A stretch of DNA of 64,000 nucleotides from an uncultured Clostridia bacterium (GTDB lineage Bacteria; Bacillota; Clostridia; TANB77; CAG-508), in the NCBI GenBank assembly GCA_934129895.1, contig CAKOWY010000003.1:15031-79030 (forward strand). Direction: 5' to 3'. This document shows, one piece after another, positions 25,233 through 45,000 of this stretch. How positions within the stretch are numbered: the stretch's first letter is position 1; the number at the start of each line of letters is the position of its first letter. The notes under the pieces were generated by a model. That model worked only from the letters and a program-made list of their open reading frames with translations. It did not search any database and was not told the DNA's origin. A program made the position numbers and the translations under genes.

Positions 25233-25264
25233 CAAAAAAAAGAACAGATTTCTCTGTTCTTTTT
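25233..25264 (-). terminator. rho-independent terminator closing the type VII-like operon
   Basis: AGAACAGA-GAAA-TCTGTTCT stem followed by T8 on the minus strand. Confidence 0.75.
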
Positions 25265-25907
25265 ATGCCTTTTTTATAACATCACTTAATCCACTTACTA
25301 ATTTATTTGTTTTTTCAGCCAATTCAATTTGAGCCTTTGCAGTATTCATCAATTTTGTGAAACTTTGTATAATATTTGCAATCACGTCTTTATATACATT
25401 TATAAGTTTTGTTAATTCAGAATTAAATTCATCAATTCCATCACATTTTATATTAATTTGTACCATTGCTCTTTGGATTGAATCTATTAATGTACTAGTG
25501 TCATTAAAGTCTGTTGTTATTAATTTTTGTATTCTTTCAGCATCACTTGTTATAAATTTCATTCCTTCATCTTTTTTTATTTCTATTTCTTGTATTTTTA
25601 TTGCATCTTCTTTTTGAATTGTTGCAATATTCTTTTGTATATCAACATTTGAAAATTCATTTGCTATTTGTTCATATACACTTGGTACTTCAAGAACAAG
25701 AATATTTAGAAATTGATTTAAATTAGCTACTATTTTATTAAATTCTGCAACTAATTCATTATATCTTTGTCCATACCAATATTCATGCAATCCTTCAATT
25801 TGCTTATATACATCTAATAGTTTTTGATTTATTTCTTTTGCATAATTTCTAATAGCATTAGAATTAGTTGGTATGTTTTCATAATCTATTACTACAACTG
25901 AACTCAT
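25263..25907 (-). CDS. double-length WXG100-like protein (214 aa)
   Basis: The 'HEYWYGQRYNELV' W-x-G motif sits at the end of a helix, and the whole protein is helical. Paralogue of 34383-34997. RBS AAGGAGG. Confidence 0.6.
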   Translation of the reverse strand: MSSVVVIDYENIPTNSNAIRNYAKEINQKLLDVYKQIEGLHEYWYGQRYNELVAEFNKIVANLNQFLNILVLEVPSVYEQIANEFSNVDIQKNIATIQKEDAIKIQEIEIKKDEGMKFITSDAERIQKLITTDFNDTSTLIDSIQRAMVQINIKCDGIDEFNSELTKLINVYKDVIANIIQSFTKLMNTAKAQIELAEKTNKLVSGLSDVIKKA

Positions 25908-25935
25908 TTTTTCCTCCTTTAATTAAATCTTTATC

Positions 25936-27573
25936 TTATCCAAAAAGCCAACTCTTTACATTTTCATAAGCTTCTTTTGCACCTGTTTTTACAGTATCAT
26001 TTATTTTTTGTGATACATCCTTGCTTATTTGATTTATATTTTCTCCTGCATTTTCTATCGCATCATTCCATCCTTGTGTTACATCATTACTTATTTTATT
26101 TACATTTTCTTTTGCCTTTGATTTTGCTTCATTCCATTTTTGTGATATATCACTACTTATCTTATCTATATTTTCTTTTGCATTTGATGCAATTCCTAAA
26201 TCATCTATAACTGATTTAACCTTACCTTCAACAGTCTTTTTAGCTCCTGTTATTCCTTCTTTTACAAATGAAATTCCTTTACCAGCGAAATCTATAAGAG
26301 ATGTTCCAGCATCAACAACTAAGTTTGCTGATGTATTAACTATAACACCTGATATTTCTACAATTTTTCCAGGTAGCTCTTTTCCAATCTCTGATATTTT
26401 TCCACCAATCTTTTCAATTAAAGGTTTTGTATTGTCTTTAATTGTTTTTACTGCACCTGTTGCTTTATTTGCAATATCTCCAGCAATTCCTGAAATGTTA
26501 GTAACCAAAGATTTTATATTTTCTCCTGTTGATTTTACTGCACCTGTTATTTTATCCCAAGCTTTAGGAACTTGACTAATAACTTTATTTGCTACATCTC
26601 CAACTAAATTAAATGTAGTATCAACTATAGTGCCTGCAATTGGGACAAGTGACTTAGTAACAGAACCAATAATATTCTTTGCTCCTGTAAGTATTCCGCT
26701 TCCGAATTTTTTAGCTCCTTCAACTGCTCCTTCTATAGCACCAACTACTGACTTTGACACACTTCCTACTACTTTCTTTGCACCTGTAATTACATTTTCT
26801 GCTTTTTTTACTATCCCTCCAACTATTTCAGACACTTTGTTATTTGCTGTAACTAAAGCTGATGTTATTTTTTCTCCAAATTTTGCACCAGTTTTTAAAT
26901 TCTCGAAAAATTTTTTTCCACCACTTATTATGCTTGTAACTCCACCAACTAACATTGGCAATAGTGCACTACTAAATTTTTCTTTAATATATTTAGCTCC
27001 AGTTTTTACTGTTTCATATCCTTTTTTTATTATATCTCCAAAAAATCCTAATATTGAAGAATTCTTTTTTGATGATACTGCATTTGTATTACCAGTTTCA
27101 CCAGTTTTATCTGAAATACTAGTATTGCTAAATAAAGATGCTGTCTTTGCTATTAACGCACTTTTTTCATTTAGTAAACTTTTAGTTGAACTTACAGCTT
27201 TTTCAGAAAGCTCTCCTGCTTCTACAAATTTTTTTCTTTTTTTCTCAAGTTCTTCAGCAGAATTTGTCAACTGAACAGCTAATTTTTCCAAAGCAACAAT
27301 TTTATTTTCTATTTTTTCTTTATTTTGTGCAGTAACATTAATTGTTGTATCAGTTGAATTTTGTATTAACCCAATTTTATATATGTTATTAACTGAACTT
27401 ATAACACTTGATATTATTGAATTAATACTTGAGGGATTATCTAATGCTGAAACAACTTGTTTTAAGTTAGTAGCTTGTTTTTTATAATTTTCAGCATCTT
27501 GTAATTGTAACTCTTTTGTACTTTTTAAACTTGTACATATTTTATCTAGTACTTCTTTACTATATCCAAACAT
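25936..27573 (-). CDS. glycine-zipper / 'TGAK'-repeat protein, candidate type VII substrate
   Basis: 545 aa. The helical N-terminus (~150 aa) is followed by about eight [KIL]TGA[KV] repeats rich in GxxxG/GxxxA. Three ~20-aa C-terminal repeats (ENIDKISSDISQKWNEA...) follow. No signal peptide. Confidence 0.5.
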   Translation of the reverse strand: MFGYSKEVLDKICTSLKSTKELQLQDAENYKKQATNLKQVVSALDNPSSINSIISSVISSVNNIYKIGLIQNSTDTTINVTAQNKEKIENKIVALEKLAVQLTNSAEELEKKRKKFVEAGELSEKAVSSTKSLLNEKSALIAKTASLFSNTSISDKTGETGNTNAVSSKKNSSILGFFGDIIKKGYETVKTGAKYIKEKFSSALLPMLVGGVTSIISGGKKFFENLKTGAKFGEKITSALVTANNKVSEIVGGIVKKAENVITGAKKVVGSVSKSVVGAIEGAVEGAKKFGSGILTGAKNIIGSVTKSLVPIAGTIVDTTFNLVGDVANKVISQVPKAWDKITGAVKSTGENIKSLVTNISGIAGDIANKATGAVKTIKDNTKPLIEKIGGKISEIGKELPGKIVEISGVIVNTSANLVVDAGTSLIDFAGKGISFVKEGITGAKKTVEGKVKSVIDDLGIASNAKENIDKISSDISQKWNEAKSKAKENVNKISNDVTQGWNDAIENAGENINQISKDVSQKINDTVKTGAKEAYENVKSWLFG

Positions 27574-27594
27574 ATACTCCTCCTAATTTAATTT

Positions 27595-27942
27595 TTATTC
27601 AAAATTATTTATGTATTCTTTTCTATTCTTATTTGCTTCTTCTATAATTTCATTAGTTTCATTTATCAACTTTGGAAATAAGTTTCCTAAAAGTTGATTC
27701 TCACCACTAATTGTATTATACCTGCCTCCACTTAATTTGTTAACTAATTCACTCATATTATTAATGCAATCTTTTAAATTATCAGTTACTGTTGGATACT
27801 CAATAGCAGTAGAAGTTCCTGGATTTAATTTTTTTGTACTATCATTATTATTTTTAAATATTGAATTAAAAAACTTTTTTATTGTCGATGTACTTGCTTT
27901 TAAATTAGTTATTTTTTTTAATATATTTCCAAAAAATTTCAT
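27595..27942 (-). CDS. hypothetical protein (115 aa) in the type VII-like operon
   Basis: ORF with RBS AAGGAGG. No TM and no recognised motif. Confidence 0.45.
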   Translation of the reverse strand: MKFFGNILKKITNLKASTSTIKKFFNSIFKNNNDSTKKLNPGTSTAIEYPTVTDNLKDCINNMSELVNKLSGGRYNTISGENQLLGNLFPKLINETNEIIEEANKNRKEYINNFE

Positions 27943-27979
27943 AAAAACCTCCTTATACTTTCTTTTGTAATATCATTTA

Positions 27980-28834
27980 TTAACCATTTATGACATCTTC
28001 TGCTAAGCTCTCTAATTGACTTAACAATGTAGGAGATTCATTTGGTATAGAAAATTGATATTTTGCAACATCCTGTAAATGCATTACATAAGCTTGTTGA
28101 CTATATGGTATTGTTGTATATTTTGAACCATTTTTTTCAAAAAGCTGTTGCATGTATGACATTGATGGATCATTATAAAATGCTAAATTCTCTATTATTT
28201 GTTTTACTGATACTTCTTCTAAATCAATATATTTATTTAAAATAATTCGTATTTTTTCATCATTCAAAGCGTTTTTTATTTTCAACATAGATAAAAATTC
28301 TGTTAATTCTTGTATCGTTAAAATATCCATTGTTTGTACAATATATATTTGTTGAGAATATGCAAAAAAATCTATATTTGTACTAAAGTCTGAATCTATA
28401 AGAACAACTTGATGTCTTTTTAATAATGTTTCTAACAATTTATCAATATTCAAATCATATTTTTCATCATTTATATCGTCCTTTTTTTCACTTGGTAAAT
28501 TTGTATAAAGAGTTAAATTATTTTCAATTTGTAATCCTTCTGCTTTTCCTTCACTTAAATTTTTAAAACAATCTTTTAATTTTAATCTTATAGCTTCTTT
28601 GTTTTGTGTATAAATATAATAAAATGCTTTATTTTTTGTCATATCCAAAATTGCTACATCAATGTTTTTATATGCAAGAATTTTGGCAACACTATTAATA
28701 AGTGATGTACTTCCACTTTGTCTTGGTCCAACAAATGAAGCCAATCTTTTCTCATTGCCTTTTAATAGTTCTCCTATACTCACATTTGAATAATTATTTT
28801 GATACATATTATCTGTTTTTAATATTTCCATCAT
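27980..28834 (-). CDS. ParA/MinD-fold protein with degenerate Walker A
   Basis: 'LASFVGPRQSGSTSLINSVAKILAYKNIDVAILDMT' aligns to the ParA/MinD P-loop region, but both lysines are absent. A Walker-B-like 'VVLIDSDFS' is present. Confidence 0.55.
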   Translation of the reverse strand: MMEILKTDNMYQNNYSNVSIGELLKGNEKRLASFVGPRQSGSTSLINSVAKILAYKNIDVAILDMTKNKAFYYIYTQNKEAIRLKLKDCFKNLSEGKAEGLQIENNLTLYTNLPSEKKDDINDEKYDLNIDKLLETLLKRHQVVLIDSDFSTNIDFFAYSQQIYIVQTMDILTIQELTEFLSMLKIKNALNDEKIRIILNKYIDLEEVSVKQIIENLAFYNDPSMSYMQQLFEKNGSKYTTIPYSQQAYVMHLQDVAKYQFSIPNESPTLLSQLESLAEDVING

Positions 28835-28865
28835 AAAGTTCCTTTCACATTTTAATTATTTCTTC

Positions 28866-29117
28866 TTATATTAATATCACTTCTGTTCCATTTCTTATTG
28901 TTGTATCTTTCAATATTAAATTATAATTAAATTCTTCTGCTGTAATTTTATCATACAATGATGGCATCTTTAATGGTTGATAATTTCCTTCACTTAAATC
29001 ATTAATTGCTTTTACAAGCAATACAATTATATCATATATCTTTTTGTTAGAAGGAATCCATACATCATAGATTTCTTCTAACATAGGAACATATATTTTT
29101 ACTAATACTTTATCCAT
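28866..29117 (-). CDS. esaB: YukD/EsaB ubiquitin-like type VII secretion protein
   Basis: ~83 aa. 'KVLVKIYVP..EEIYDVWIPSNKKIYDIIVLLVKAI...TIRNGTEVILI' fits the YukD beta-grasp pattern. The ATG at 29117 overlaps the essC stop (ATGGATAA). The ORF-track start is 29132. Confidence 0.7.
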   Translation of the reverse strand: MDKVLVKIYVPMLEEIYDVWIPSNKKIYDIIVLLVKAINDLSEGNYQPLKMPSLYDKITAEEFNYNLILKDTTIRNGTEVILI

Positions 29118-32100
29118 CTTCATCACCAGCATCTTTCATTCCTACAAGTTTTACAATTGCTGCTTCTTCCTGTTTTATCAAATATCCAAAACTATCTCCA
29201 CAATTATTAATTACATCTCTATTATTTGAATTTAAATGTATTAAATATTGATCTCTAACACCATTTCCAATCCAAATTCCACTATCTTTAGAAGCATAAC
29301 TTCTGTACCAATCATCATATTCGTGATTCTTTAGTTTAAATACACTCTCAACAATAATAAATGTATAATTTTTTAATTCTTCTGCTTTCTTTAAATCAGA
29401 AACAATACTATTTTCGACTGATGTTAAAAATTTGTCCATTCCAATAATTATACAAATGTTATGTTTGTTTTTTCCTAAATTATTTTGAATTTTTAATGAA
29501 TAATTTTGATAATCCAATTTTAGATTTTTTCTTGCTTCTTGCACTAATCCTTCAGAATCAAATATAGTTATATTTATACTATTTATTAAATTTAATTCTT
29601 CATAAATATGTGTTATATATTCAGCTGCAATATCTATATTTTTAGCAGAAACAATATTCATAAAATTATTTTTAAAATCATAGCTTGCAATTTTTAATGA
29701 TGATTTATATATACCTAATGGTACCTTATCTAATTGTGTTATATATTCCTGTATATCTTTTACTTTTATTTGTTTTGGTAAAACCGGAATTGCCATCGCT
29801 TTTTCAGTACTTTTTTCATTTAGTTCTTTTATTTTTTCTTTTATATAAGAATTCCATTTTTCAGGTTCACATATTCTTGCTGTTTGAAATTCATATATAT
29901 CATCCAATTTAATAAGTCCTCTTCCAAAAATATGTGCTGGTCTTTTCTTTCTAACACCCTCAAGAATATTTATGAAATCATCCTCATTATTTAACTGTAA
30001 TACTATCTTTTGTCTAAAGTTTTGTGATAATCTATATCTTATACTATTATATGCACTTGCAGTTAGTACAAACGAAATTCCATACTTTGTTCCTTCTCTA
30101 CAAAGTGTTAATAATATATCATCATATTTATCACTATAATTCTCAACAAAGCCTTCATAGTTATTAATAACTATAATAATTCTAGCCATTTGCTCTCCAG
30201 TATCATTTATATAAAGTCTTAAATTTCCTCCATAACTAGATAAAAGTTCTGTTCTTCTTTTCATTTCTTTTTGAATCATTTCAAATAATCTATTAATTTT
30301 TTCTTCTTCTGTGCTTAATACTACATCACCAACAGATGGTGCATCTTTAAAAATCTTTAAAGCTTCACTGCCAAAGTCTAACAAATATAATTGTGCTTCT
30401 CTTACTTCATAATTTGTTATTACATCATATACCATTGTACTTAACAATGTTTCTTTTCCACTTTCTGCATTACCAAAGACAATAACATTTCCTTGTTTTT
30501 CAAAATCAATTTCAACAGGACCTTGTCTTTGATTAAATGGATCATCATATTCTCCTAGTACAGAAACTACATTATTATCTTCTTTTATAATATTGTATTT
30601 CTTTCTAACATCCATTAAATTTATTATACTTGGTATATTTTCTAACCATAATGGCTTTAATTTTATATTTTCTTCTTTTCCAATCTCATAAATATATTTT
30701 ACTATATTAGTTAATTGTTCTCCATCTTTTTTGGCTTGATTCTTTTTCGTATCATCTATTTTCTTTATAACCATTCCAATATTTGAAACAAATTTAATTG
30801 AATTATCTACATTTTTCTTTATTATATCAGCTGGTTCATAATTTGCTCCAGCCCATGCAGATTGTCCTAATACAAAATATTCATTATTTCCAACTTGCAT
30901 ATAAAATTGTCCTGCTCTTTTTAATTCAGCAGCTTCAGGTCTTTTTATTACATCTATACTATCTTGTCTATCTTGTACTTTTAAACATATTCCAAATTTA
31001 CTATTACTACGAATTTGGTCATTTACAACACCAGCTGGTTTTTGAGTAGCTAATATTAAATGAACACCTAAACTACGTCCAATTCTAGCTACACTTATTA
31101 ATTCATCCATAAAGTCTGGTTGTTGTTGTTTTAATTCAGCAAATTCATCACATATTATCAACAAATGTGGTATTGGTTCTTTTACTATTCCTTCATGAAA
31201 CAATTTTTGATATTTGTATATATCAATAGTTCCTTCATCTGTCTTATCTCTTGCTTGATTAAATTTTACTTGTCTTCTTCTTAATTCACTTTGTATAGAT
31301 ACAAGTGATCTCTGTAATCCAACTTTATCTATGTTTGTAATTGTTCCTACAATGTGTGGTAGTTTTATATTTCCTTTTTGAAATGCTCCAGCTAATCCTC
31401 CACCTTTATAATCAATTAAAATCATTGAAACATCATTTGGATGGTAATTTATAGCTAATGATAAAATATATGTAATTATAAATTCACTCTTACCAGAACC
31501 TGTACTTCCTGCAATTAATCCATGTGGTCCATGAGCTTTTTCATGTATATCCAATACAATTGGCATTCCATTTGTATCTATTCCAATTGGTGCTTGTAAT
31601 GATTTTGTAGAATCATTAGTTTTCCATCTCTGTAATATATTTAATTGTTCAATCCTTCCACAATCATACATCTCTAAAAATGTATATACTTCTGGTAAAG
31701 AAAATTTTGATGATGTTGTTGCTCTTATTGGTATATTTGACAATCTTTGACCTATATTTTCAAAGAAAAATGTAAAAGATGAATCAAAATAAAATTCTTT
31801 TTTTGTTGTAGATGTTATCTCATTTTCAAATAATTTTCCATTTTTACCATTTTCTATATTTATAAATAATTGACATTCATTTGGTAAATGTAATAAATTG
31901 TCTGTTAAACAAAATATTCCAAACCCTAAATTTCTTTTCAAATTTAAGATTTCAGTTATTATTTTTAAATTTTCAATTTTCTTATAATCATCTGTTATTA
32001 TTAAATAATATGGTGAAAAAGATCTATAATCAAACTTATCTTCATATTGTTTTCTATTATTTAATTCTTCTTCTAGATATCTTGATATATCTTTCATATC

Positions 32101-33690
32101 ATCGTATTCGTCTGCCCAAAATCTTATTTGTTTTTGATCATCCCATATATGTGGTAATGTTTTCATATATTCCCATTTGATTTTCTTTTCTTTTTTTAAT
32201 AAAAATACTATTTTTAAATCTGCATAACTATGTAATGCTATTAATTGCATTATCAAATTTTGTGCAAATTTTTCCATAGTTCTATCATCATTTCTTACTA
32301 TTAATGCTGCTATATTTTTATTTGTAAGATTTGCTACTATTGGTACATTTTTAATTACTTTTGATTTTTTCTCAACAGAATCTATTAACTCAACTAAATT
32401 ATCTTCTTCTAATGAAAATCCTTTTTTTGGATATTCTATATCCGCAAAAATTGGTACATCACCTAATCCAACTCTTATTGATAAAAAATCATCATCTTCG
32501 ATTCTTCTTTCCCATAATCTAGAATTTTTATTTATAATTATTTGTGCACATTCTTGTGCTGAAATATATTTGTTATATAATATATTTTTTTGCTTATTCA
32601 TTATCTCGTCAATTTGTTCGATTTTTTTATTTATATATTCTTTATATTTTTCTTGTCTTCTTTTTTCTAGCTTTATTTGTCTTTTCTTATCATACTTATT
32701 ATTTAAAATCGGAAACATAACCATACTCAATAACATAGCACCAGTCATTGAAGCAGACATTATTATACTACTTTTGGAAGCTGTTCCTTTTGAGATACCA
32801 TTTATTGTCATAATCATTGAAATAACCATAACAATTCCCATAAGAAAACTTGGACCAATAGAATAAATTAATGGTTTTTCATTTGGCTCTTGTTTATGTG
32901 GTGGAGAATCTATTATAATCCTCTCCCTTTCCAATTTTCTAACAATTCTTGGTGCTCTCGCAAAAAAATCTTTTTCAGAAAATAATTCGATATCGGTATC
33001 ATCCTTTTCCTGACTTACAATCATTTTTTTTTCATTATTTATAACTTGAAAAATGTTTGTATTATATGAAACTCTATTAAAAGGATTATTTATAAAAAAA
33101 TTATTTCCAACAATTACAATTTTAAGTCCCATAATAAATATTACATCGCCATTAAAAAGTAATCTTAATTTATTAGATACTGGTATACCATTTAAGAACA
33201 CACCATAATTATTATCATAATTTTCTAACATTAATTTTCCATTACTAAAAAATATTTTAGCTTGAACTTTTTTTATTAGAGAATTATCATATATAATATC
33301 GCAATTAGTATCTCGACCTATTGTTAATTGTTGGAAATTTTGTGATTTTATATGTATAAAATTTTTTTCATATATCGGCTCACATAGTAATATATAAAAT
33401 AAATTAGTATTACTACTCAAAGATATATAATGTATACTATTTTCTTTTAAATTTATTTTCTGTATAATGTTTTTTTTATCTTTTATTATTTTGGAAGCAT
33501 TAAATGTTTTTATAGAATTGGGATTTAATATTTTTACCTGTTCATTACTATATATTTGCCATTCACTGTCTTTTCCAATTATGTTGATTAACTTTTTTCC
33601 ATCTTCATTTGTTAGCCAATAATCACCCTTTTTCTCTTTAGGTAGTTTTAGCTTATATATTACATTTTCTCCTATTAATGTTACTAACAT
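29110..33690 (-). CDS. essC: EssC/YukB-type FtsK-SpoIIIE ATPase of type VII secretion
   Basis: 1526 aa. FHA-like 'LTIGRDTNCDIIYD', two TM helices, P-loop 1 'GSTGSGKSEF' plus 'ICDEFAELK', P-loop 2 'GNAESGKE'. The third module has no Walker A. Confidence 0.9.
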   Translation of the reverse strand: MLVTLIGENVIYKLKLPKEKKGDYWLTNEDGKKLINIIGKDSEWQIYSNEQVKILNPNSIKTFNASKIIKDKKNIIQKINLKENSIHYISLSSNTNLFYILLCEPIYEKNFIHIKSQNFQQLTIGRDTNCDIIYDNSLIKKVQAKIFFSNGKLMLENYDNNYGVFLNGIPVSNKLRLLFNGDVIFIMGLKIVIVGNNFFINNPFNRVSYNTNIFQVINNEKKMIVSQEKDDTDIELFSEKDFFARAPRIVRKLERERIIIDSPPHKQEPNEKPLIYSIGPSFLMGIVMVISMIMTINGISKGTASKSSIIMSASMTGAMLLSMVMFPILNNKYDKKRQIKLEKRRQEKYKEYINKKIEQIDEIMNKQKNILYNKYISAQECAQIIINKNSRLWERRIEDDDFLSIRVGLGDVPIFADIEYPKKGFSLEEDNLVELIDSVEKKSKVIKNVPIVANLTNKNIAALIVRNDDRTMEKFAQNLIMQLIALHSYADLKIVFLLKKEKKIKWEYMKTLPHIWDDQKQIRFWADEYDDMKDISRYLEEELNNRKQYEDKFDYRSFSPYYLIITDDYKKIENLKIITEILNLKRNLGFGIFCLTDNLLHLPNECQLFINIENGKNGKLFENEITSTTKKEFYFDSSFTFFFENIGQRLSNIPIRATTSSKFSLPEVYTFLEMYDCGRIEQLNILQRWKTNDSTKSLQAPIGIDTNGMPIVLDIHEKAHGPHGLIAGSTGSGKSEFIITYILSLAINYHPNDVSMILIDYKGGGLAGAFQKGNIKLPHIVGTITNIDKVGLQRSLVSIQSELRRRQVKFNQARDKTDEGTIDIYKYQKLFHEGIVKEPIPHLLIICDEFAELKQQQPDFMDELISVARIGRSLGVHLILATQKPAGVVNDQIRSNSKFGICLKVQDRQDSIDVIKRPEAAELKRAGQFYMQVGNNEYFVLGQSAWAGANYEPADIIKKNVDNSIKFVSNIGMVIKKIDDTKKNQAKKDGEQLTNIVKYIYEIGKEENIKLKPLWLENIPSIINLMDVRKKYNIIKEDNNVVSVLGEYDDPFNQRQGPVEIDFEKQGNVIVFGNAESGKETLLSTMVYDVITNYEVREAQLYLLDFGSEALKIFKDAPSVGDVVLSTEEEKINRLFEMIQKEMKRRTELLSSYGGNLRLYINDTGEQMARIIIVINNYEGFVENYSDKYDDILLTLCREGTKYGISFVLTASAYNSIRYRLSQNFRQKIVLQLNNEDDFINILEGVRKKRPAHIFGRGLIKLDDIYEFQTARICEPEKWNSYIKEKIKELNEKSTEKAMAIPVLPKQIKVKDIQEYITQLDKVPLGIYKSSLKIASYDFKNNFMNIVSAKNIDIAAEYITHIYEELNLINSINITIFDSEGLVQEARKNLKLDYQNYSLKIQNNLGKNKHNICIIIGMDKFLTSVENSIVSDLKKAEELKNYTFIIVESVFKLKNHEYDDWYRSYASKDSGIWIGNGVRDQYLIHLNSNNRDVINNCGDSFGYLIKQEEAAIVKLVGMKDAGDEDG

Positions 33691-33705
33691 ATTTTTTTCT
33701 TTCTT

Positions 33706-33987
33706 TTATGATTTTATTTCTTTTACAGCTTCAGATAATTTATTTCTAAATTCTTCTTCTTCATCATCAATTAATCCCATAAAGTGGATCTCTTCTATTT
33801 GTGAATGATCAAATAAATAATTACTTGTTGATACTAGCATTCCCTCTGGATATAAGCATCCACAATAATCCCATATTTTTTTCTCTTTGCTATCATCTTC
33901 AATAGGTAAATATCCTGTTATCATTAATCTTTTTTCACCATCTTTTAGTTTTACAACACTTCCTATAGGTAAATATTTTTCTTCCAT
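33706..33987 (-). CDS. DUF4176-like small protein (type VII-associated)
   Basis: 'LPIGSVVKLKDGEKRLMITG...DYCGCLYPEG...YLFDHSQIEEIHFMGLIDDEE' matches my memory of DUF4176. Tandem paralogue of the next gene. Confidence 0.65.
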   Translation of the reverse strand: MEEKYLPIGSVVKLKDGEKRLMITGYLPIEDDSKEKKIWDYCGCLYPEGMLVSTSNYLFDHSQIEEIHFMGLIDDEEEEFRNKLSEAVKEIKS

Positions 33988-34011
33988 TACAAATTTCCTC
34001 TTTCTTTAGTT

Positions 34012-34305
34012 TTAGTTATTTTGACTATTAAATTGTTTTAAAGCTTCTGTTAATTTATTCTTAAATTCTTTTTCTTCATCATTTACAAGTCCAACATGAG
34101 CTATTTCTTCTATTTGTGAATGATTAAATAAATAATTATCTGTTGATGTAATTATTCCCTCTGGATATAAACATCCACAATAATCATATATTTCCTTTTT
34201 TCCATCTTTATTATCTTCGTATTGTAAAAAACCTGTTATCATTAAATTCTTTTCTCCATCTTTTAATTTTACAACACTTCCTATTGGTAAATATTTTTCT
34301 TCCAT
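34012..34305 (-). CDS. DUF4176-like small protein (type VII-associated)
   Basis: The first 19 residues are nearly identical to 33706-33987, and the same conserved blocks follow. Confidence 0.65.
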   Translation of the reverse strand: MEEKYLPIGSVVKLKDGEKNLMITGFLQYEDNKDGKKEIYDYCGCLYPEGIITSTDNYLFNHSQIEEIAHVGLVNDEEKEFKNKLTEALKQFNSQNN

Positions 34306-34382
34306 ATTATTTTTCTCCCTTCATTTGTTTTATACCTTATTAGAGGCATACATATTTTTTTATGATGCCTCTTAATTTTTTA

Positions 34383-34997
34383 TTATTGAACTGTATTTGA
34401 TTTTTCTGCATTTTCTATATCTTGTTGTGTTTGATTCATTAATCTTACAAATTGTGTATTAATATTATCAAAAGCAGAATTAATTTTATCTTCTAATTCT
34501 TTCATTTTTGATCTATATGTATCTGCAGCTTCACTTTTCCATGATACATTATCTAATTGTGCTTTTACTTTGCTCATTAAATCTTTTGTTTTGTTAAATC
34601 CTTCTGATATTGTTCTTTGTGCATTGTTAACATCACCTGATACAAATCTCATTCCAACATCATTTGTAATTGGTAATGCTGATATTAAATTTGCATTTGT
34701 TTCTTCTGCTGATGTTACATTTTGGAATCTATCAGCATTTGAATATGTATTAGCTATTGTTTCCATTGAGAATGGAATATCAGTAACAATTAATTTTAAT
34801 AATTCATTTAATTGTGGTTCCATTTCATTAAATATTTTAACTAATTCATTATATCTTGCTCCATACCATGAATTATGCATTTCTTCAACCTTTGCATATA
34901 CATTTTTTAGTTCTGTATTTAATTCTACAGCTCCTTCTCTCATATCTTTTGCAACTTTTGCCATTTGTTCATAATCTGCATCTGCTATATTTGCCAT
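34383..34997 (-). CDS. double-length WXG100-like protein (204 aa)
   Basis: 'HNSWYGARYNELV' (W-x-G) in the first half and 'VSWKSEAADTYRSKM' in the second half. RBS AAGGAGG. First gene after the promoter. A hairpin at 34347-34377 follows it. Confidence 0.6.
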   Translation of the reverse strand: MANIADADYEQMAKVAKDMREGAVELNTELKNVYAKVEEMHNSWYGARYNELVKIFNEMEPQLNELLKLIVTDIPFSMETIANTYSNADRFQNVTSAEETNANLISALPITNDVGMRFVSGDVNNAQRTISEGFNKTKDLMSKVKAQLDNVSWKSEAADTYRSKMKELEDKINSAFDNINTQFVRLMNQTQQDIENAEKSNTVQ

Positions 34998-35050
34998 TTT
35001 TATTTCCTCCTTTATATTTTTATTACTTTATTGTAATGTTTTATATATTT

Positions 35051-35079
35051 TTTATACACTTAATTACTGTATTTGTCAA
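35051..35079 (-). promoter_or_regulatory. promoter of the type VII-like operon (TTGACA-17-TATAAA)
   Basis: On the minus strand the -35 is at 35079-35074 and the -10 at 35056-35051. A ~54-nt leader runs to the ATG at 34997. Confidence 0.55.
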
Positions 35080-35089
35080 CGTTTTTTTT

Positions 35090-35122
35090 ATTACATTTCT
35101 ATTACATTTTTATTACGATTTT
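35090..35122. repeat. three tandem 11-nt direct repeats immediately upstream of the -35
   Basis: ATTACATTTCT / ATTACATTTTT / ATTACGATTTT, read on the plus strand. Confidence 0.7.
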
Positions 35123-35127
35123 TGCCA

Positions 35128-35165
35128 TAAAAAGAAGCTCCCCAGGGAACTATTCCCTAGGGAGC
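35128..35165 (-). terminator. GC-rich rho-independent terminator of the RelA/SpoT-like gene
   Basis: The minus strand reads GCTCCCTAGGGAAT-AG-TTCCCTGGGGAGC followed by TTCTTTTTA. Confidence 0.7.
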
Positions 35166-35181
35166 AAAAGGATATTAGGCC

Positions 35182-36165
35182 TTATTGCGGAATCAGCGTT
35201 GTGGAGACTCGACGCTCGGTATACTCCTTAGCATTATGGATACCATTGATATCCTCATCCTTGCTTTCATATCCGCTAAAACCAATGATGTGAACTTTAC
35301 TAAAGTCATCCACACAAAAAACCTTGTTGATGTACTTGTCAACTTCAGAAAGCTCCTCTTCTGATAAGCCTCCTGTCATTTTGTACACGTCATGCGAGGC
35401 TTTGCCATGTTCGGCTTCCTCTTCCATCTGCCGACTTTTCAGTTGAATTTCAAACAAGCACCCTGCAAGCACCTCAGAATACATCTGAATAGACATTGTA
35501 AACTGATATGCTCGATAGCCATTTTCTTTTGGCTCCTTGATGTAATCCTTTATAAAGTCAATGCCAAACGGAGTGTTTAAGACACACTTGATAACTTCTT
35601 TGTCGGGCAACAAAATGTTTTTGTTATTTGCTACCCAATCTGCAAATTCCTTTCTCATCTTACGGTTTTTGGCTGCAAGAATACCCGAAATGCATTCGAA
35701 TATTTTGTAAATTATCTGCTCCACTTCAGTCTCAGGCAGTTCGTTTTGCACAATTGCCTTAATTCCGAATCTATCCCTTATGTTCGCAGATAATGTTCCG
35801 TTGGACTTCTTTAAGAGTTTGGTTAACTCACTTTCCAGTGCTTTGCATCTCGCCTTAAGCTTGATGTCAATATGCATATTCCTTGTGCTGTTGAGCCAAA
35901 GGATAATATACATCATCGTAATGATAATGTATATAGAAAAGTTTGTTATCTCAAAAGTCCTTTGTCTTGTTCCAATACATCCTCTCATTCCATCCAAGAA
36001 TGTTTCAAAAGCTTCTACATCCTCCTCATCATCAAGTTCAACTTGATTCAAAATGTCGTATAGGTTATTTGCGATTTCCAAAAGGTTGGATGATTTTTCT
36101 ACAGCCTGTTGATAGGCCTCGTGAATCATCCGGAGTGTTTTCATTTGAAATTTTTGTACTGACAC
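35182..36165 (-). CDS. RelA/SpoT-homologue (small-alarmone-synthetase-like nucleotide pyrophosphokinase) with N-terminal TM helix
   Basis: Synthetase motifs appear in order: 'KARCKALESELTKLLKK', 'IRDRFGIKAIV', 'KENGYRAYQFTM', 'FEIQLKSRQMEEEAEHGKASHDVYK'. A TM-like 'FSIYIIITMMYIILWL' lies at residues ~76-91. GTG start after GAGGAA. Hand counts give ~40% G+C. Confidence 0.7.
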   Translation of the reverse strand: MSVQKFQMKTLRMIHEAYQQAVEKSSNLLEIANNLYDILNQVELDDEEDVEAFETFLDGMRGCIGTRQRTFEITNFSIYIIITMMYIILWLNSTRNMHIDIKLKARCKALESELTKLLKKSNGTLSANIRDRFGIKAIVQNELPETEVEQIIYKIFECISGILAAKNRKMRKEFADWVANNKNILLPDKEVIKCVLNTPFGIDFIKDYIKEPKENGYRAYQFTMSIQMYSEVLAGCLFEIQLKSRQMEEEAEHGKASHDVYKMTGGLSEEELSEVDKYINKVFCVDDFSKVHIIGFSGYESKDEDINGIHNAKEYTERRVSTTLIPQ

Positions 36166-40337: not shown

Positions 40338-42062
40338 TTATATCTCCTTCCTTATCAATTCAATAAATTTACTTATGTAATTATTTGAAATCTCTGGCCA
40401 ATTAAATTTACATTTTTTCAAATAATTAATTGTAAAGTTAGAATTTAAAATTATATCACTATTATAATTTAAATGATAATTATTATCAAGATCACTAACT
40501 ATATTTTGTAAATTTATTTTTTTCTGTTCATTTTGTAAAATTTCTGATATCTGCTTTTTAAATATTGTTTCTGGCACAACTTCCATTTTATATCCAAATT
40601 CTTTTATTATATCAAAATAATCTTTTAAAGTAACTGTATTATGATTATATACATGAAATATCCTATTTGTTTTTGAAAAATTAGTTACAATTTTATATAT
40701 AGCATTTGCAGCAATATCTACAGGTGTAAACTCAAGTTGATTTTCTAATAAATACTCAGGAACTATTCCTAGTTTCATAAATAATGCCACTTTAGTTATA
40801 AATGCGTTTTCATTTATATTTTCTTGAAAATGTCCATCACATAGTCTTGGCATTAAATTTCCTAGACGAAGAATATATGCATCAACACCATTTGCAATTG
40901 CATTTAAAATAATTGTTTCCGCTTCAAATTTTGTATATGTATATACATTATCAAGATATTGACCTATATACAAAGAACTTTCATTAAATTCTTTTTTATT
41001 TCCATACTCACCACTTAATTTTTTTCCTGAAACTCCAGTTGTAGAAATTTGATAAAATCTCTTGTTAAATGTTTTACAAAAGTCAACAATGTATTTTACA
41101 CTTTTAACATTTGTATCATAAAATTTGTCATATACACCAAAATGGGCAACATTTGCAGCACTATTTATTACTAAATCAGCCTCTTCTGAAATTTTTAACA
41201 GATCCTTATCTGACAATCCAAAATTCGGTTGACATATATCTCCTTGAACAAGAACTATTTTATCTCCAATATATTTGTTATATTTCTCACCAAAATAATA
41301 AGTTAATTTTTGAGTTATTTTTCTTGTTATAGACATACCTGGTTCTTTTCTAATTATACAATAAATTTTTCCATTTTCGTTTTTCAAAAATTCCTCTAGT
41401 ATATGTATTCCTAAATATCCTGTAACTCCTGTAAGTAATATATTACGAGGATGATACTCTTGGATTTTTTCATCATTTCTTGTATTTTTTAATATATTTA
41501 AAGAACTTTCTGGAATTTCTTCAATTTTATTATGTTGAAATTCATCATTTGAATTTATTTTTTCTTCAATATCTAAAACTGTTGAACACTTAAATATATC
41601 AGAATAAGAAATCTTATTTGTAATTTCTAATAATTCTATATTTAATTTCATAGCTAATAAAGAATCTCCCCCAAGTTCAAAGAAATTATCATTTATTCCA
41701 ATTGGACTAACATTTAAAACTTTTTGAAAAATATCAACTAATTTTTTCTCTAATTCATTTCCAGGAGCAATATATTCTTCACCACATAACTTTGATAAAT
41801 TTTGTGGTAATGGTAATTTTTTTCTATCTATTTTTCCATTTGGAGTATATATAAACTCATCTAATGGAACATAATATGATGGAACCATATATCGTGGCAA
41901 ACTTTTAGAAAGATATTTTCTCAATTCATTTATAGAAATTCTTTTATTTGCAACAAAATATGCAGAAATAAAATCTCTATTGTTAGCAGTTTGTTTTAAA
42001 ACTGCTACTTTTTCTATATTTGGATATTTTGAAATTAAATTTTCGATTTCTCCGTAATTCAA
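40338..42062 (-). CDS. NRPS fragment: end of A2, T2 and terminal thioester reductase (downstream half of one frameshifted gene)
   Basis: A10 'NGKIDRKKLP', T 'LGGDSLLAMKL', R domain 'LLTGVTGYLGIHILEEF' and 'YTYTKFEAE'. The ORF-track Met is not a real start; the frame continues from 41983-47739. Confidence 0.8.
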   Translation of the reverse strand: MNYGEIENLISKYPNIEKVAVLKQTANNRDFISAYFVANKRISINELRKYLSKSLPRYMVPSYYVPLDEFIYTPNGKIDRKKLPLPQNLSKLCGEEYIAPGNELEKKLVDIFQKVLNVSPIGINDNFFELGGDSLLAMKLNIELLEITNKISYSDIFKCSTVLDIEEKINSNDEFQHNKIEEIPESSLNILKNTRNDEKIQEYHPRNILLTGVTGYLGIHILEEFLKNENGKIYCIIRKEPGMSITRKITQKLTYYFGEKYNKYIGDKIVLVQGDICQPNFGLSDKDLLKISEEADLVINSAANVAHFGVYDKFYDTNVKSVKYIVDFCKTFNKRFYQISTTGVSGKKLSGEYGNKKEFNESSLYIGQYLDNVYTYTKFEAETIILNAIANGVDAYILRLGNLMPRLCDGHFQENINENAFITKVALFMKLGIVPEYLLENQLEFTPVDIAANAIYKIVTNFSKTNRIFHVYNHNTVTLKDYFDIIKEFGYKMEVVPETIFKKQISEILQNEQKKINLQNIVSDLDNNYHLNYNSDIILNSNFTINYLKKCKFNWPEISNNYISKFIELIRKEI

Positions 42063-45000
42063 TTCGTAATCCTCTAATTTTTATTTGATTGTCACTTCTT
42101 CCTAAGCAAATAATATTTCCATCATCTAAATATCTTCCTAAATCACCACTTTTATACATTAGTGTATCTTTTATGAATGGATTCTTTACAAAACTTTTAC
42201 TTGTTAGTTCTAAATTATTAAGATATCCTCTTGCTAATCCATCACCAGAAATATATATTTCCCCAACAACTCCTACTGGAACTGGTTGTAAATCTTTATC
42301 TAATATATACATTTGATCATTGTAAAATGGTTTTCCTATTGTAATAAAATCATCTTTTACTTCTGTAAGTGTACAATAATATGTTTCAGTTGGTCCATAT
42401 CCATCATATATAGTTATATTTGCCAAACTCTTTAATTTTTTTACTAATGCTATAGGCACTTGTTCACCAGTTAATGTTAGATATTTTAAATCTTTTAAAC
42501 TAGGAATATTTTCTATATCATTAACAAATATTTGCATTACAGATGGTGTTGCCTGTGTTGCTGTAACATTATTTTTTATAATTACATCATTTAATAATTT
42601 TGGAGTAGTTTGTTCATCTTCATTTGCAATTACAACTTTCACTCCTCTTTGCAATGGAATAAGAGCTTCGTATGAAAATATATCAAAACTTACTGTTGAA
42701 ATAGATACTATAGCTTGATCTTGTGGATTTTTTAAATATCCCACATAATCATTGCAATAATTTGCAAAGTTTACAAGTGTTTTATGTTTTTGCATAACTC
42801 CCTTTGGTTTTCCTGTTGAACCAGAAGTAAAAATAATATAAAGTAAATCATTTAAGCTATTTATATTCTTTATATTTTCATTAGGTAATCCATATATGTC
42901 ATTATTGTCCAAATCTACTATTATTTGATTTTTATAGTTCATTTTTTTAGCAATTTTCTTACATGTAAGCAATATAGATGCAGATGCTTCTTCTAGCATA
43001 TAATTTATTCTTTCTTCTGGGTAATTTGGATCGATTGGAATATAAGTTCCTCCAGCTTTCATAATTCCCAATATAGCAATAATCATTTCTAATGATCTGT
43101 TTACCATTACACCTATTGCATCTTCTCTTTTAACTTGCTTTACATTTCTTAAGTAATATGCTAAACTATTAGCTTTTTCATTTAATTCTTTATAAGTCAA
43201 TTTTTTATCTTCAAATACTAGAGCTATTTTGTCTGGTGTTTTGTTTACTTGCTCTTCAAAAAGAGTAGAAAATGTTTTTTCTGGATATTCTTTATAAGTA
43301 TTATTAAATCCATAAAGTATTTTATTTTTCTCTTTAGCTGAAAGTATTTGTATTTCTTTTATTTTTGAGTTCGTATTTCTCATAATATAATCTATTGTAT
43401 TCATATAATTTTCAAATAGATTTTCTATAGTTTCTTTCTTAAATAAGTCAGTACAATATTCAATATTAATTGAATGTGTTTTGGGTTGAATTTCTAAAGA
43501 CAAATTGAATTTTGAAATCTTATTATTAATTGATACTACTTGTGCTTCTTTATCATTTATTTTTAAGAATGTTTCCTGCTTATTTTGGTAAGTAAACATT
43601 ACATCAAATAATGGATTTCTTGAAGCATCTGTATCAACTTTTAATTTTTTTATCAGCATATCAAATGGATATGGTTGATATGTCAAATCCTCTAATAATT
43701 GTTCTTTTATTTCAATCAAAAATTCTTCAAATGTCTTTTCTGAATCTATTTTTCCTCTTAAAACTATATTATTAACAAACATTCCGAACATTCTCTTTGT
43801 TTCATTTCTATCTCTATTTGCAATAGGACTACCTATGTTTATATCGTCTTGTCCTGTGTATTTATATAATATTACAAAAAGAATTGAAACAAAAAACATA
43901 TATGGAGATACTCCTAATTTTTTCGCATATCTCTCCATTTTTCTAAAAAGTTTTTCATCAATAACATTTATTATTTTCTTTCCATTATAAGATCTTAATG
44001 TAGGAACTTTATAATCATAAGGTAAGTTTAATTGTGAAAAACTGCAGTCTTTAAATTTATTTACCCAATAATCTTCTTGAGTTTTTATTAGTGAACTATT
44101 ATTATATTCATTTTCCCATACTGCATAATCTTTATATTGAATTGGTATATTCTTTAAATCCTCTCCATTATATAATCTATTAAATTCTATAACTAAATTA
44201 TTTAAAGCTGTTCCATCCATTATTATATGATGTGTATCTAATAACAATAATGTCTTTTTATTATCTATATAATGCATTTCAACTCTGAATAATGGAGCCT
44301 TCTCAAGTTCAAATGGTTTAGAAAAAGTATTTACTATATCTTGAATTTCACTTTCACTATTCTGATATGTATCAATATTAAATTTAACCTTATCTTCAAC
44401 TTTTTGTACAACTGATTCATTCTCAACAACAAATGATGTTCTTAACGTACTATGTCTATTAATTATTTTTTCAAATACATTTTGTACTTTATCTTTATCT
44501 AAAATTTCATCAATAATCATTGCCCATGGCATATTATAAACAATATTATTGTCCCCAATCATTTTTACATTATAATAAATTCTTTTTTGAGCTGATGACA
44601 AAGGATAACTTTCTTGAATTGGAGCTTTTTCTATTTTAATTTTCAAAGTATTATTTGTTCTATTTTGTTTTATATAATCAGACATATCTTTTATTGTATA
44701 ATTTGATAAAAGATCTTTTATATTTATTTGTACATTAAATTTAGATAAAATCTTTGTTGATAATGTAATCGCTGTTAATGAATCTCCTCCAAGTTCTAAT
44801 AAAGTATTATTTATTCCAACATTAGTAACTTGCAACATTTTTTCTATTATTTTAATTAATTCTTTATCTATTTCATTTCTTGGTTTTATAGCTTTTTTAT
44901 TATTTCCCTTAAATTCAGGATCTGGCAATGATTTTCTATCTATCTTACCATTTAATGTATATGGAAATTTCTCTAATTGGATAAAATATTGTGGAATCAT

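Follow-up and report, generated by a model that had tools for sequence, protein, structure and literature searches.

A candidate variant type VII secretion cluster of uncultured gut Clostridia, comprising a TseC-like EssC ATPase, a YukD-like protein, a lysine-less ParA/MinD-fold protein and tandem WXG proteins

The DNA analyzed here is a stretch of 64,000 nucleotides (the window) from an uncultured Clostridia bacterium, contig CAKOWY010000003.1 of assembly GCA_934129895.1 (positions 15,031 to 79,030), with a G+C content of ~26% and with identical or near-identical contigs known from human-gut (Hadza) metagenomes. A minus-strand run of nine co-directional open reading frames (ORFs), extending from 34997 to 25263 (Table 1), probably encodes a conserved variant type VII secretion system (T7SS), comprising (i) a four-gene core, (ii) the ATPase EssC as the sole membrane protein encoded, (iii) soluble helper proteins, and (iv) a variable cargo module, a reading to which we assign a probability of roughly two in three. 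The conserved core comprises a tandem-WXG protein of ~200 residues, an FHA-bearing EssC of the TseC lineage, a YukD-like protein, and a lysine-less protein of the ParA/MinD fold, with DUF4176 proteins usually encoded alongside. Relative to the published types T7SSa to T7SSj, this is an unreported combination, uniting a TseC-lineage ATPase with a ParA-type accessory protein resembling that of T7SSf and with tandem WXG proteins, and containing no kinase/phosphatase module.

Searches with the ParA-like protein returned 89 clusters and, among species-representative genomes, at least 573 relatives, and 80 loci, all from uncultured Clostridia, were kept; the DNA inspected comprises the 64-kb window and a 10-kb flank around each relative. 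The EssC, YukD-like, and ParA-like genes are adjacent and in the same order in 12 of the 12 related loci, the YukD-like gene lying directly 3' of essC and the ParA-like gene directly 3' of the YukD-like one, and the tandem-WXG gene is present in 11 of them. These loci represent about ten species, with EssC identities of 58-79%, and at least four sets of flanking genes, including (i) murT/gatD with rlmN-stp-prkC (L001, L012, and L013), (ii) a relA-like gene with PBP-ddl (the window), (iii) prfB (L009), and (iv) MurJ-HU with ClpC (L032). Because L032 holds the WXG204-EssC-YukD-ParA genes alone, between MurJ/HU and ClpC, these four genes are taken as the core. The ORFs are intact in every locus examined, and the ratios of nonsynonymous to synonymous substitution rates (dN/dS) for unsaturated pairs lie between 0.05 and 0.22 across the four core genes (0.05-0.09 for EssC, 0.10-0.19 for the YukD-like protein, 0.11-0.14 for the ParA-like protein, and 0.13-0.22 for the tandem-WXG protein), pointing to purifying selection on all four. 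Homologues are very common in human-gut assemblies: the index of the assembly collection lists the ParA-like homologue P0033 in 2647 blocks, and two WXG204 homologues each occur on at least 1000 contigs.

EssC exceeds the cut-off of the equivalog model TIGR03928 (1008 bits, cut-off 778.4) and matches PF01580 (E 7e-49). The protein comprises (i) an FHA domain at residues 123-184 (E 1e-9), (ii) two hydrophobic segments at residues 278-296 and 308-326, and (iii) the ATPase modules, with the Walker A motif GSTGSGKS at residue 728, LIICDEFAE at 844, a degenerate P-loop GNAESGKE at 1073, and no third Walker A. Degenerate P-loops in the D2 and D3 modules are also usual in working T7SSb EssC proteins. 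Across the EssC clade the phosphothreonine motifs of the FHA domain are largely lost, with GR present in some members only, SxxH mostly gone, and NG replaced by YG or FG in all, a degeneration that fits the absence of a kinase. A conjugation or partition module of the FtsK/ParA kind, considered as another identity for the locus, was rejected on the EssC equivalog score together with the WXG100, DUF4176, and YukD genes.

The affiliation of the ATPase was assessed in two ways. Full-length EssC is 37-40% identical to the TseC proteins of T7SSe control loci (L105-L107), which were fetched from metagenomes with the TseC N-terminus as query. Ten published TsxC representatives were available for their N-terminal ~45% only, from text of Supplementary Figure S2 that was recovered by optical character recognition and contains errors (PMC11217815); against these, the N-terminal 720 residues of EssC score 339 bits with TseC, 221 with TsdC, 173 with TsiC, 139 with TsjC, 139 with TsfC, and 108 with Staphylococcus aureus EssC (22% identity), the lowest of the FHA-bearing representatives. 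By these comparisons, EssC appears nearest to the TseC (T7SSe) lineage among the ten. In large protein searches with EssC and with the 204-residue WXG protein, the matches listed were all at least 59% identical, and neighboring subtypes were not revealed among them.

EssC is the sole operon product with a clear transmembrane segment, none of the other products reaching the criterion used (a 19-residue window with a mean Kyte-Doolittle hydropathy of at least 1.6). Pfam searches of the nine products and of 20 further window ORFs, including a non-ribosomal peptide synthetase (NRPS), cmk, a sigma factor, HtrA, ABC transporters, and Spo0A, disclose no EssB/YukC (PF10140-type), EssA, EsaA, kinase, or PP2C protein. 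A WXG100/EsxA protein of ~100 residues is likewise missing from the operon, where the WXG proteins are of 204 and 214 residues only. Intergenic gaps measure 15-77 nucleotides, and essC and the YukD-like gene that follows it overlap or abut; because no gap exceeds 77 nucleotides, no small gene is hidden between the ORFs. Since no clear transmembrane segment occurs outside EssC, no protein of the locus can replace EssA, EssB, or EsaA in the membrane.

The YukD-like protein, of 88 residues, shows no direct sequence match in Pfam or the Protein Data Bank (PDB), nor does its profile when compared with the PDB. Its identity to TseB of the T7SSe locus L107, which itself passes the Pfam YukD model (28.1 bits, cut-off 27), is 36% (E 2e-20), and in its own family of 401 representatives five of 40 diverse members match YukD (PF08817), which indirectly identifies the protein as a TseB/YukD homologue. 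YukD is needed for T7SSb assembly and promotes the assembly of YukB in Bacillus subtilis (PMC12637312).

The 284-residue protein reaches 24.2 bits with CbiA, below the cut-off of 25.4, and sequence and profile searches against the PDB returned nothing significant. Its AlphaFold2 (AF2) model (predicted local distance difference test, pLDDT, 75.7; predicted template-modeling score, pTM, 0.80) was matched by Foldseek to ParA, MinD, FleN, BcsQ, and FlhG with a probability of 1.00, E values of 3e-9 to 1e-6, and target-normalized TM-scores of 0.6-0.74, and by this model the protein has a ParA/MinD fold. The P-loop reads GPRQSGSTS in the window and G-x-x-Q/K-S-G-[ST]-[ST] in the 12 T7-linked copies read, with (i) a serine or threonine in place of the lysine of GK[ST], (ii) the KGG signature lysine gone, and (iii) the loop one residue short; the protein is probably unable to hydrolyze ATP. 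TadZ/CpaE, FlhG/FleN, and BcsQ, ParA/MinD-family factors that position and assemble envelope machines, share the fold and are likewise encoded inside operons for secretion or appendage machines. Compared to these ParA/MinD factors, the deviant Walker A motif KGGxxGK[ST] is replaced by the shorter lysine-less P-loop and, compared to MinD, the basic amphipathic C-terminal helix that targets the membrane is missing.

Of the 80 genome loci, 70 contain a ParA-like paralogue that does not adjoin EssC. In an unrooted tree, the 72 non-T7 copies group together as one clade (29 of 30 bootstraps), beside the T7-linked copies of L018 and L032, the midpoint-rooted tree being uninformative; they likewise have no GK[ST] lysine, a lysine sitting two positions earlier. 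A receiver-like N-terminal domain occurs in the non-T7 paralogue and not in the 284-residue protein, and the T7-linked gene is a stand-alone relative of a lineage-wide TadZ-like protein. In L011 (8185-11011), the paralogue is apparently one long ORF, with masked N's within, comprising the receiver-like N-terminal domain, two AT-hooks (RGRPRKNP), acidic repeats (PIIPGFENYN), and then the ParA-like domain, and adjoining GGDEF, IreB, and RuvX genes; it is found also in L008 and in some 70 further loci among L017-L090. The four-gene T7 core of L032 (2144-13723) lies directly downstream of MurJ-like and HU genes, and in L008 (4041-11302) that pair is followed, a few genes farther downstream, by the non-T7 paralogue; this shared setting may be a clue to the origin of the linkage between the ParA-like gene and EssC, or a coincidence.

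In two stretches, the 204-residue protein, twice the usual length, matches the WXG100 models PF06013 (48.4 bits against a cut-off of 27.3) and TIGR03930 (53.3 bits against 44.85). When its family profile was compared with the PDB, the N-terminal half resembled an ESAT-6-like chain (E 0.013) and the C-terminal half a chain of Streptococcus agalactiae EsxA SAG1039 (E 0.022). The AF2 model (pLDDT 84.7, pTM 0.81) comprises four long helices, that is two hairpins in one chain, with turns at W-Y-G (44-46) and W-x-S (153-155). Compared to the separate WXG proteins of T7SSe, the C-terminal half resembles TseA2 (hhalign E 4e-4, probability 34%) and the N-terminal half TseA1 (E 0.11), so that the tandem protein could derive from a fusion of TseA1-like and TseA2-like halves, a lead only. 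The 214-residue protein is a full-length paralogue (33% identity over 201 residues, E 1e-41), although by itself it scores 23.7 bits with WXG100, under the cut-off. It aligns weakly with the LXG profile from end to end (E 0.18), and its homologues (40-43% identity) are encoded next to the variable large protein in L001 and in L012-L016.

The 115-, 545-, and 214-residue proteins look like a variable cargo module and not like core parts. Relatives of the 545-residue protein are detectable over the full length in its own species only, and other species carry unrelated bodies at the same slot. Its first ~45 residues (MF[GSE][YF]xExV...) align to the N-terminal ends of the large proteins encoded at this slot in L015, L016, L001, L012, and L014, most of which end in a different domain with IIHEVGGHGTG (not in L016) and most of which are followed by a gene for a protein of ~170 residues. 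A second family of large proteins (L009, L034, L056, and L091) displays its own N-terminus and hydrophobic central segments, with HExxH in L009 and L091. The position of the modules relative to the core differs between species, being downstream in some and upstream in others (including L016 and L091, where they precede essC); they move with a WXG214-like gene, often with a 115-aa-like gene and the ~170-residue partner gene. Shared N-termini, variable bodies, a mobile module, and allelic variation typify polymorphic T7 substrates that have targeting partners of their own, hence the cargo reading. In L012 (4115-13943) and L013 (4112-13143), EssC and the YukD-like and ParA-like proteins are 99-100% identical, yet the cargo differs, with a 550-residue protein and a 172-residue partner in one and a 464-residue protein alone in the other; WXG204 is only 72% identical between them, and this 'core' gene seems to vary together with the cargo.

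The 545-residue protein contains 75 lysines and seven TGAK motifs, with a peak hydropathy of 1.5 at residues 200-218, a GxxxGxxxG stretch that was read by eye and not computed, apolipoprotein-like 22-residue repeats, and a weak apolipoprotein-repeat match in Pfam; a 66-nucleotide tandem repeat lies within its gene at 26008-26188. Composition and repeats suggest that it is probably membrane-active. An allele of 497 residues in the same species (L005, 11262-12755) shares 98% identity with it over residues 1-491, the difference lying at the end that carries the C-terminal 22-residue repeats. The 115-residue protein is conserved in its C-terminal ~45 residues only (43-52% identity), in six of the 12 loci and always beside a large variable protein; a coiled-coil match to a viral heptad-repeat construct (E 9e-5) was taken as compositional. 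Neither of these two proteins could be placed in a family by Pfam or PDB searches, nor could the cargo proteins of other species by Pfam. The window operon encodes two DUF4176 paralogues, against one copy in most related loci; in Streptococcus suis, LXG effectors are stabilized by DUF4176 proteins (PMC12482557).

The original prediction, made from the window sequence, had described most of these components. Direct reading places all nine co-directional genes between the promoter-like site and the hairpin with T8, at the predicted coordinates; the FHA-like N-terminus, two transmembrane helices, GSTGSGKS and ICDEFAE motifs, GNAESGKE loop, and missing third Walker A of EssC are all present; both DUF4176-like paralogues match PF13780; and the 204-residue double-WXG protein and its 214-residue counterpart agree with the WXG100 matches and the paralogy given above. 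The YukD/EsaB assignment next to the essC stop is borne out indirectly, through TseB and the five family members, and the ParA/MinD fold by AF2 and Foldseek, though the CbiA score lies under the cut-off. The 115- and 545-residue proteins had rightly been described as of no recognizable family, and the lack of an EssB-like pseudokinase, EssA, EsaA, and a ~100-residue WXG100 protein holds for the nine products, and for the domains also in the 20 window ORFs. Co-occurrence with EssC, which the prediction proposed to trace by neighborhood analysis, is complete for the ParA-like gene (adjacent in 12 of 12 loci) and fails for the 545-residue gene, restricted in full length to its own species.

Other parts of the prediction need revision. 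The T7SSb reference frame gives way to T7SSe, since TseC and TseB of that type are the nearest relatives of the ATPase and of the ubiquitin-like protein, respectively. The proposal that the 284-, 115-, and 545-residue proteins replace the membrane partners conflicts with the lack of clear transmembrane segments and with the place of the latter two in the variable cargo slot. The reading that a toxin array is lacking (no LXG toxin/immunity array was seen) is not borne out: the 545-residue protein has its N-terminal motif in common with the polymorphic large proteins of that slot in other species, some with a ~170-residue partner gene. What stands of the 'reduced or alternative architecture' is a genuine T7SS of conserved and distinct architecture, not a one-off deletion; what falls is the T7SSb frame and the idea of locus-specific membrane replacements.

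Eight non-canonical types, T7SSc to T7SSj, have been defined in a catalogue built by BLAST search of RefSeq (Garrett, Higginson & Palmer 2024, PMC11217815). All the carriers found here are metagenome assemblies or records of uncultured organisms. RefSeq presumably holds few or none of these, so that the survey probably missed the lineage. A literature search on tandem WXG proteins, ParA-linked T7SS, or a further named subtype found nothing besides the same study (PMC11217815).

T7SSe displays the nearest ATPase, with the LPxxxxGxYW start, the FHA domain, and the GPSxxMG first transmembrane region common to both, a ubiquitin-like gene directly after the ATPase gene (36% identity to TseB), and two WXG-family genes per locus. 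In contrast, the T7SSe components TseF (PP2C), TseD (membrane kinase), TseH and TseK (single-pass), TseI (~2000 residues, Ig-like), and TseJ (DUF6382-FHA) (PMC11217815) occur neither in the operon nor in any of the 12 related loci; T7SSe encodes two separate WXG proteins of ~100 residues, TseA1 and TseA2, whereas those described here are tandem forms of ~200 residues; and a ParA-like gene is lacking in T7SSe. TseC retains the phosphothreonine motifs of the FHA domain, two of them in 98-99% of sequences (PMC11217815); here they are largely lost. The control locus L107 comprises, by Pfam, a PP2C, a membrane kinase, a 2121-residue Ig-like protein, a single-pass protein, TseC, TseB (YukD), and WXG100 genes of 100 and 101 residues. 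Directly after the two WXG100 genes, L105-L107 encode proteins with Mbeg1-like/class-3-lipase domains and predicted transmembrane segments (for example L107, 15454-20020), which fit the 'reverse lipase' cargo of Garrett et al. (PMC11217815).

T7SSf, from Clostridium acetobutylicum and C. felsineum, is also clostridial and combines an FHA-ATPase, a YukD-like protein, and a cytoplasmic P-loop protein of the ParA/MinD family within the cluster, TsfV, described as ParA/TadZ-like (PMC11217815) and the only T7SS component of the ParA/MinD type known so far. TsfV, compared here by its description only, carries an N-terminal TadZ-like receiver domain, whereas the 284-residue protein has none; TsfC is farther from EssC than TseC (139 against 339 bits); and the PP2C TsfF and the two-transmembrane DUF6382-FHA protein TsfJ have no counterparts among the domains of the operon. 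T7SSb, from S. aureus and B. subtilis, shares an FHA-EssC with two transmembrane segments, one active and two degenerate ATPase modules, a YukD-like partner, and DUF4176 genes and polymorphic cargo adjoining the machinery, and differs in its EssB pseudokinase, EssA, EsaA, and 100-residue EsxA, and in its distant EssC. T7SSg is similarly 'simple', with two WXG genes, a YukD-like protein, and an ATPase that is the only predicted membrane component (PMC11217815), but its TsgC has no FHA domain, it includes the DUF5050 β-propeller protein TsgL, it lies beside Tad pilus genes, and it has no ParA-like gene. The prior publication of TsfV and of T7SSg lowers the surprise of the present cluster (PMC11217815).

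A mechanism consistent with these components can be outlined. EssC multimers would form the membrane channel and the motor, and the YukD-like protein would bind EssC and aid its assembly, in the way that YukB is aided by YukD in B. subtilis. The lysine-less ParA-like protein may serve, at the cytoplasmic face of EssC, as a scaffold or as a positioning factor, standing where T7SSb has the EssB pseudokinase and T7SSf the TadZ-like TsfV. The tandem-WXG protein would be a single-chain equivalent of an EsxA/EsxB-type dimer, co-secreted and priming the ATPase. The 545-residue protein would be a secreted effector, probably membrane-active, which the 115- and 214-residue proteins target to the machine and DUF4176 stabilizes. 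The further-reaching proposition is that a T7SS works with EssC as its only membrane protein, a dead ParA/MinD scaffold filling the (pseudo)kinase role, and fused WXG 'dimers' and polymorphic membrane-active cargo being exported, and that this minimal machine is among the commonest T7SS of the human gut, overlooked as its hosts are uncultured; we put it forward tentatively, with more doubt than belief.

Several observations count against these readings. Every functional role proposed here derives from homology and gene position, and the comparison of TsxC subtypes used error-bearing character-recognition text covering the N-terminal ~45% of the protein. The Foldseek search with the 204-residue model gave no significant match, with generic four-helix bundles on top (best E 0.034) and EspB PE-PPE tenth (E 0.14), and the links between the WXG halves and the T7SSe proteins are weak. 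Because the ParA-like protein has a close and far more widespread paralogue that is not beside EssC, adjacency alone suggests its T7 role, and the MurJ-HU context common to L032 and L008 casts some doubt on how the linkage arose. In the 545-residue protein, no LXG match (PF04740) was found at E values up to 1 and no recognizable toxin domain, and the window contains no obvious immunity gene, so that the term effector reflects position. The main uncertainty concerns membrane partners, which may be encoded outside the window and flanks that the search covered.

This last point underlies the alternative that deserves most attention, although we consider it unlikely: an ordinary T7SS, of the b or e type, whose membrane and regulatory partners (EssA/EssB/EsaA, or TseD, TseI, and the single-pass proteins) lie at a second locus, the operon only seeming stripped. 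In other bacteria, the components of a T7SS can be divided among loci, the present EssC passes the firmicute EssC equivalog model, and the DNA seen is 64 kb of one genome and 10-kb flanks of relatives. In at least four genomic contexts, however, the cluster never carries such partner genes, which in genuine T7SSe loci stand directly beside tseC; none was found in the window; and the FHA motifs with which a kinase signal would be read are degenerate. A T7SS with the ATPase as sole predicted membrane component has moreover been published in T7SSg (PMC11217815).

Much less probable is the idea that the 284-, 115-, and 545-residue proteins are new core machinery, functionally replacing EssB, EssA, and EsaA. 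Their genes occupy the positions 3' of essC/esaB where T7SSb has its membrane components, the 284-residue gene is invariably linked, and the 545-residue protein has the weakly hydrophobic stretch noted above (1.5, residues 200-218). Yet none of the three displays a clear transmembrane helix; the 545-residue protein is species-restricted, with unrelated bodies at its slot elsewhere; the 115-residue protein is conserved in its C-terminal third only, in half of the loci; both are missing in L032, L009, L018, L034, L056, and L091; and in L016 and L091 the module lies upstream of essC. A view of the cluster as the remains of a T7SSe-like system that is decaying and no longer functions is scarcely credible: the loss of most T7SSe accessory genes, of the FHA motifs, and of the second and third P-loops would agree with decay, but the ORFs are intact in all loci examined, dN/dS is 0.05-0.22, the four-gene core is kept over about ten species at 58-79% EssC identity, and degenerate D2 and D3 P-loops are, as said, no mark of a dead EssC. 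We therefore favor a conserved variant T7SS with a four-gene core and a variable cargo module.

Table 1. Features of the T7 operon and its boundaries, in window coordinates (position 1 is the first letter of the window)
Feature	Coordinates	Strand	Remarks
Terminator of upstream RelA/SpoT-like gene	35137..35165	-	13-pair stem (8 G-C) and T-run; 5' boundary of the T7 operon
11-nucleotide direct repeat, 3.5 copies	35085..35123	-	Tandem Repeats Finder score 62, 89% matches; directly 5' of the -35 hexamer
Promoter-like site TTGACA-17 nt-TATAAA	35051..35079	-	TTGACA 35079-35074, TATAAA 35056-35051; 11 of 12 consensus positions matched
204-residue tandem-WXG protein, candidate core secreted WXG component (TsxA-like)	34383..34997	-	WXG100 above cut-offs
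DUF4176 protein, 97 residues, candidate effector chaperone	34012..34305	-	PF13780 E 2.3e-26
Second DUF4176 protein, 93 residues, paralogue of the 97-residue one	33706..33987	-	PF13780 E 6.2e-28
EssC/TsxC ATPase, 1526 residues	29110..33690	-	N-terminal FHA, two transmembrane helices, one canonical and one degenerate P-loop
YukD/EsaB-like ubiquitin-fold protein (TsxB), 88 residues	28866..29132	-	Likely start Met6 at 29117
ParA/MinD-fold protein, 284 residues, candidate non-catalytic scaffold/positioning factor	27980..28834	-	AF2 and Foldseek
115-residue helical protein, candidate accessory/targeting partner of cargo	27595..27942	-	No family match
545-residue candidate secreted cargo	25936..27573	-	Conserved ~45-residue N-terminal motif, K/G/S/I/V-rich amphipathic region, three 22-residue C-terminal repeats
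214-residue tandem-WXG paralogue	25263..25907	-	Travels with cargo module
Hairpin and T8, intrinsic-terminator-like; 3' operon end	25233..25264	-	Last stop codon runs into hairpin

The order of elements 5' of the first gene is terminator, 11-nucleotide repeats, TTGACA-17-TATAAA, a GGAGG ribosome-binding site, and the first ATG. Since promoter-like hexamer pairs are not enriched in this AT-rich stretch (80 found against 84 expected from shuffles), the promoter call is one of position, between a strong terminator and the ribosome-binding site. The repeats, with the consensus TTTTTATTACA as given on the plus strand, could be a putative regulator-binding or UP-like element. Scans of the locus with Rfam and for tRNA genes gave no match. 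Just 5' of the operon, with the strong terminator between, lies the gene for a 327-residue protein (35182-36165, minus strand) with a RelA/SpoT synthetase-like region in its C-terminal half only (PF04607, E 1e-14); in other species the T7 cluster occurs without this gene. Farther along (40338-47739, minus strand), the window encodes an NRPS, comprising a 1918-residue ORF with two condensation and two adenylation stretches and a PP-binding domain, which overlaps by 80 nucleotides a 574-residue ORF with AMP-binding_C, PP-binding, and NAD_binding_4 reductase domains. The whole looks like a two-module, reductase-terminated synthetase, presumably of the kind reported for dipeptide aldehydes or pyrazinones in gut Clostridia, and the overlap may reflect a frameshift or two genes.

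Mycobacteria, staphylococci, and bacilli have been at the center of work on T7SS, and in these the ATPase is surrounded by several membrane partners. The cluster described here would extend the published T7SSa-j catalogue (PMC11217815) and, if the proposed architecture is true, would provide a natural minimal system in which to study what EssC requires for a working channel. After the EssB pseudokinase, it would also be the second example of a T7 scaffold recruited from a dead enzyme fold, and would hint that abundant uncultured gut Clostridia engage in antagonism, whether contact-dependent or secreted.

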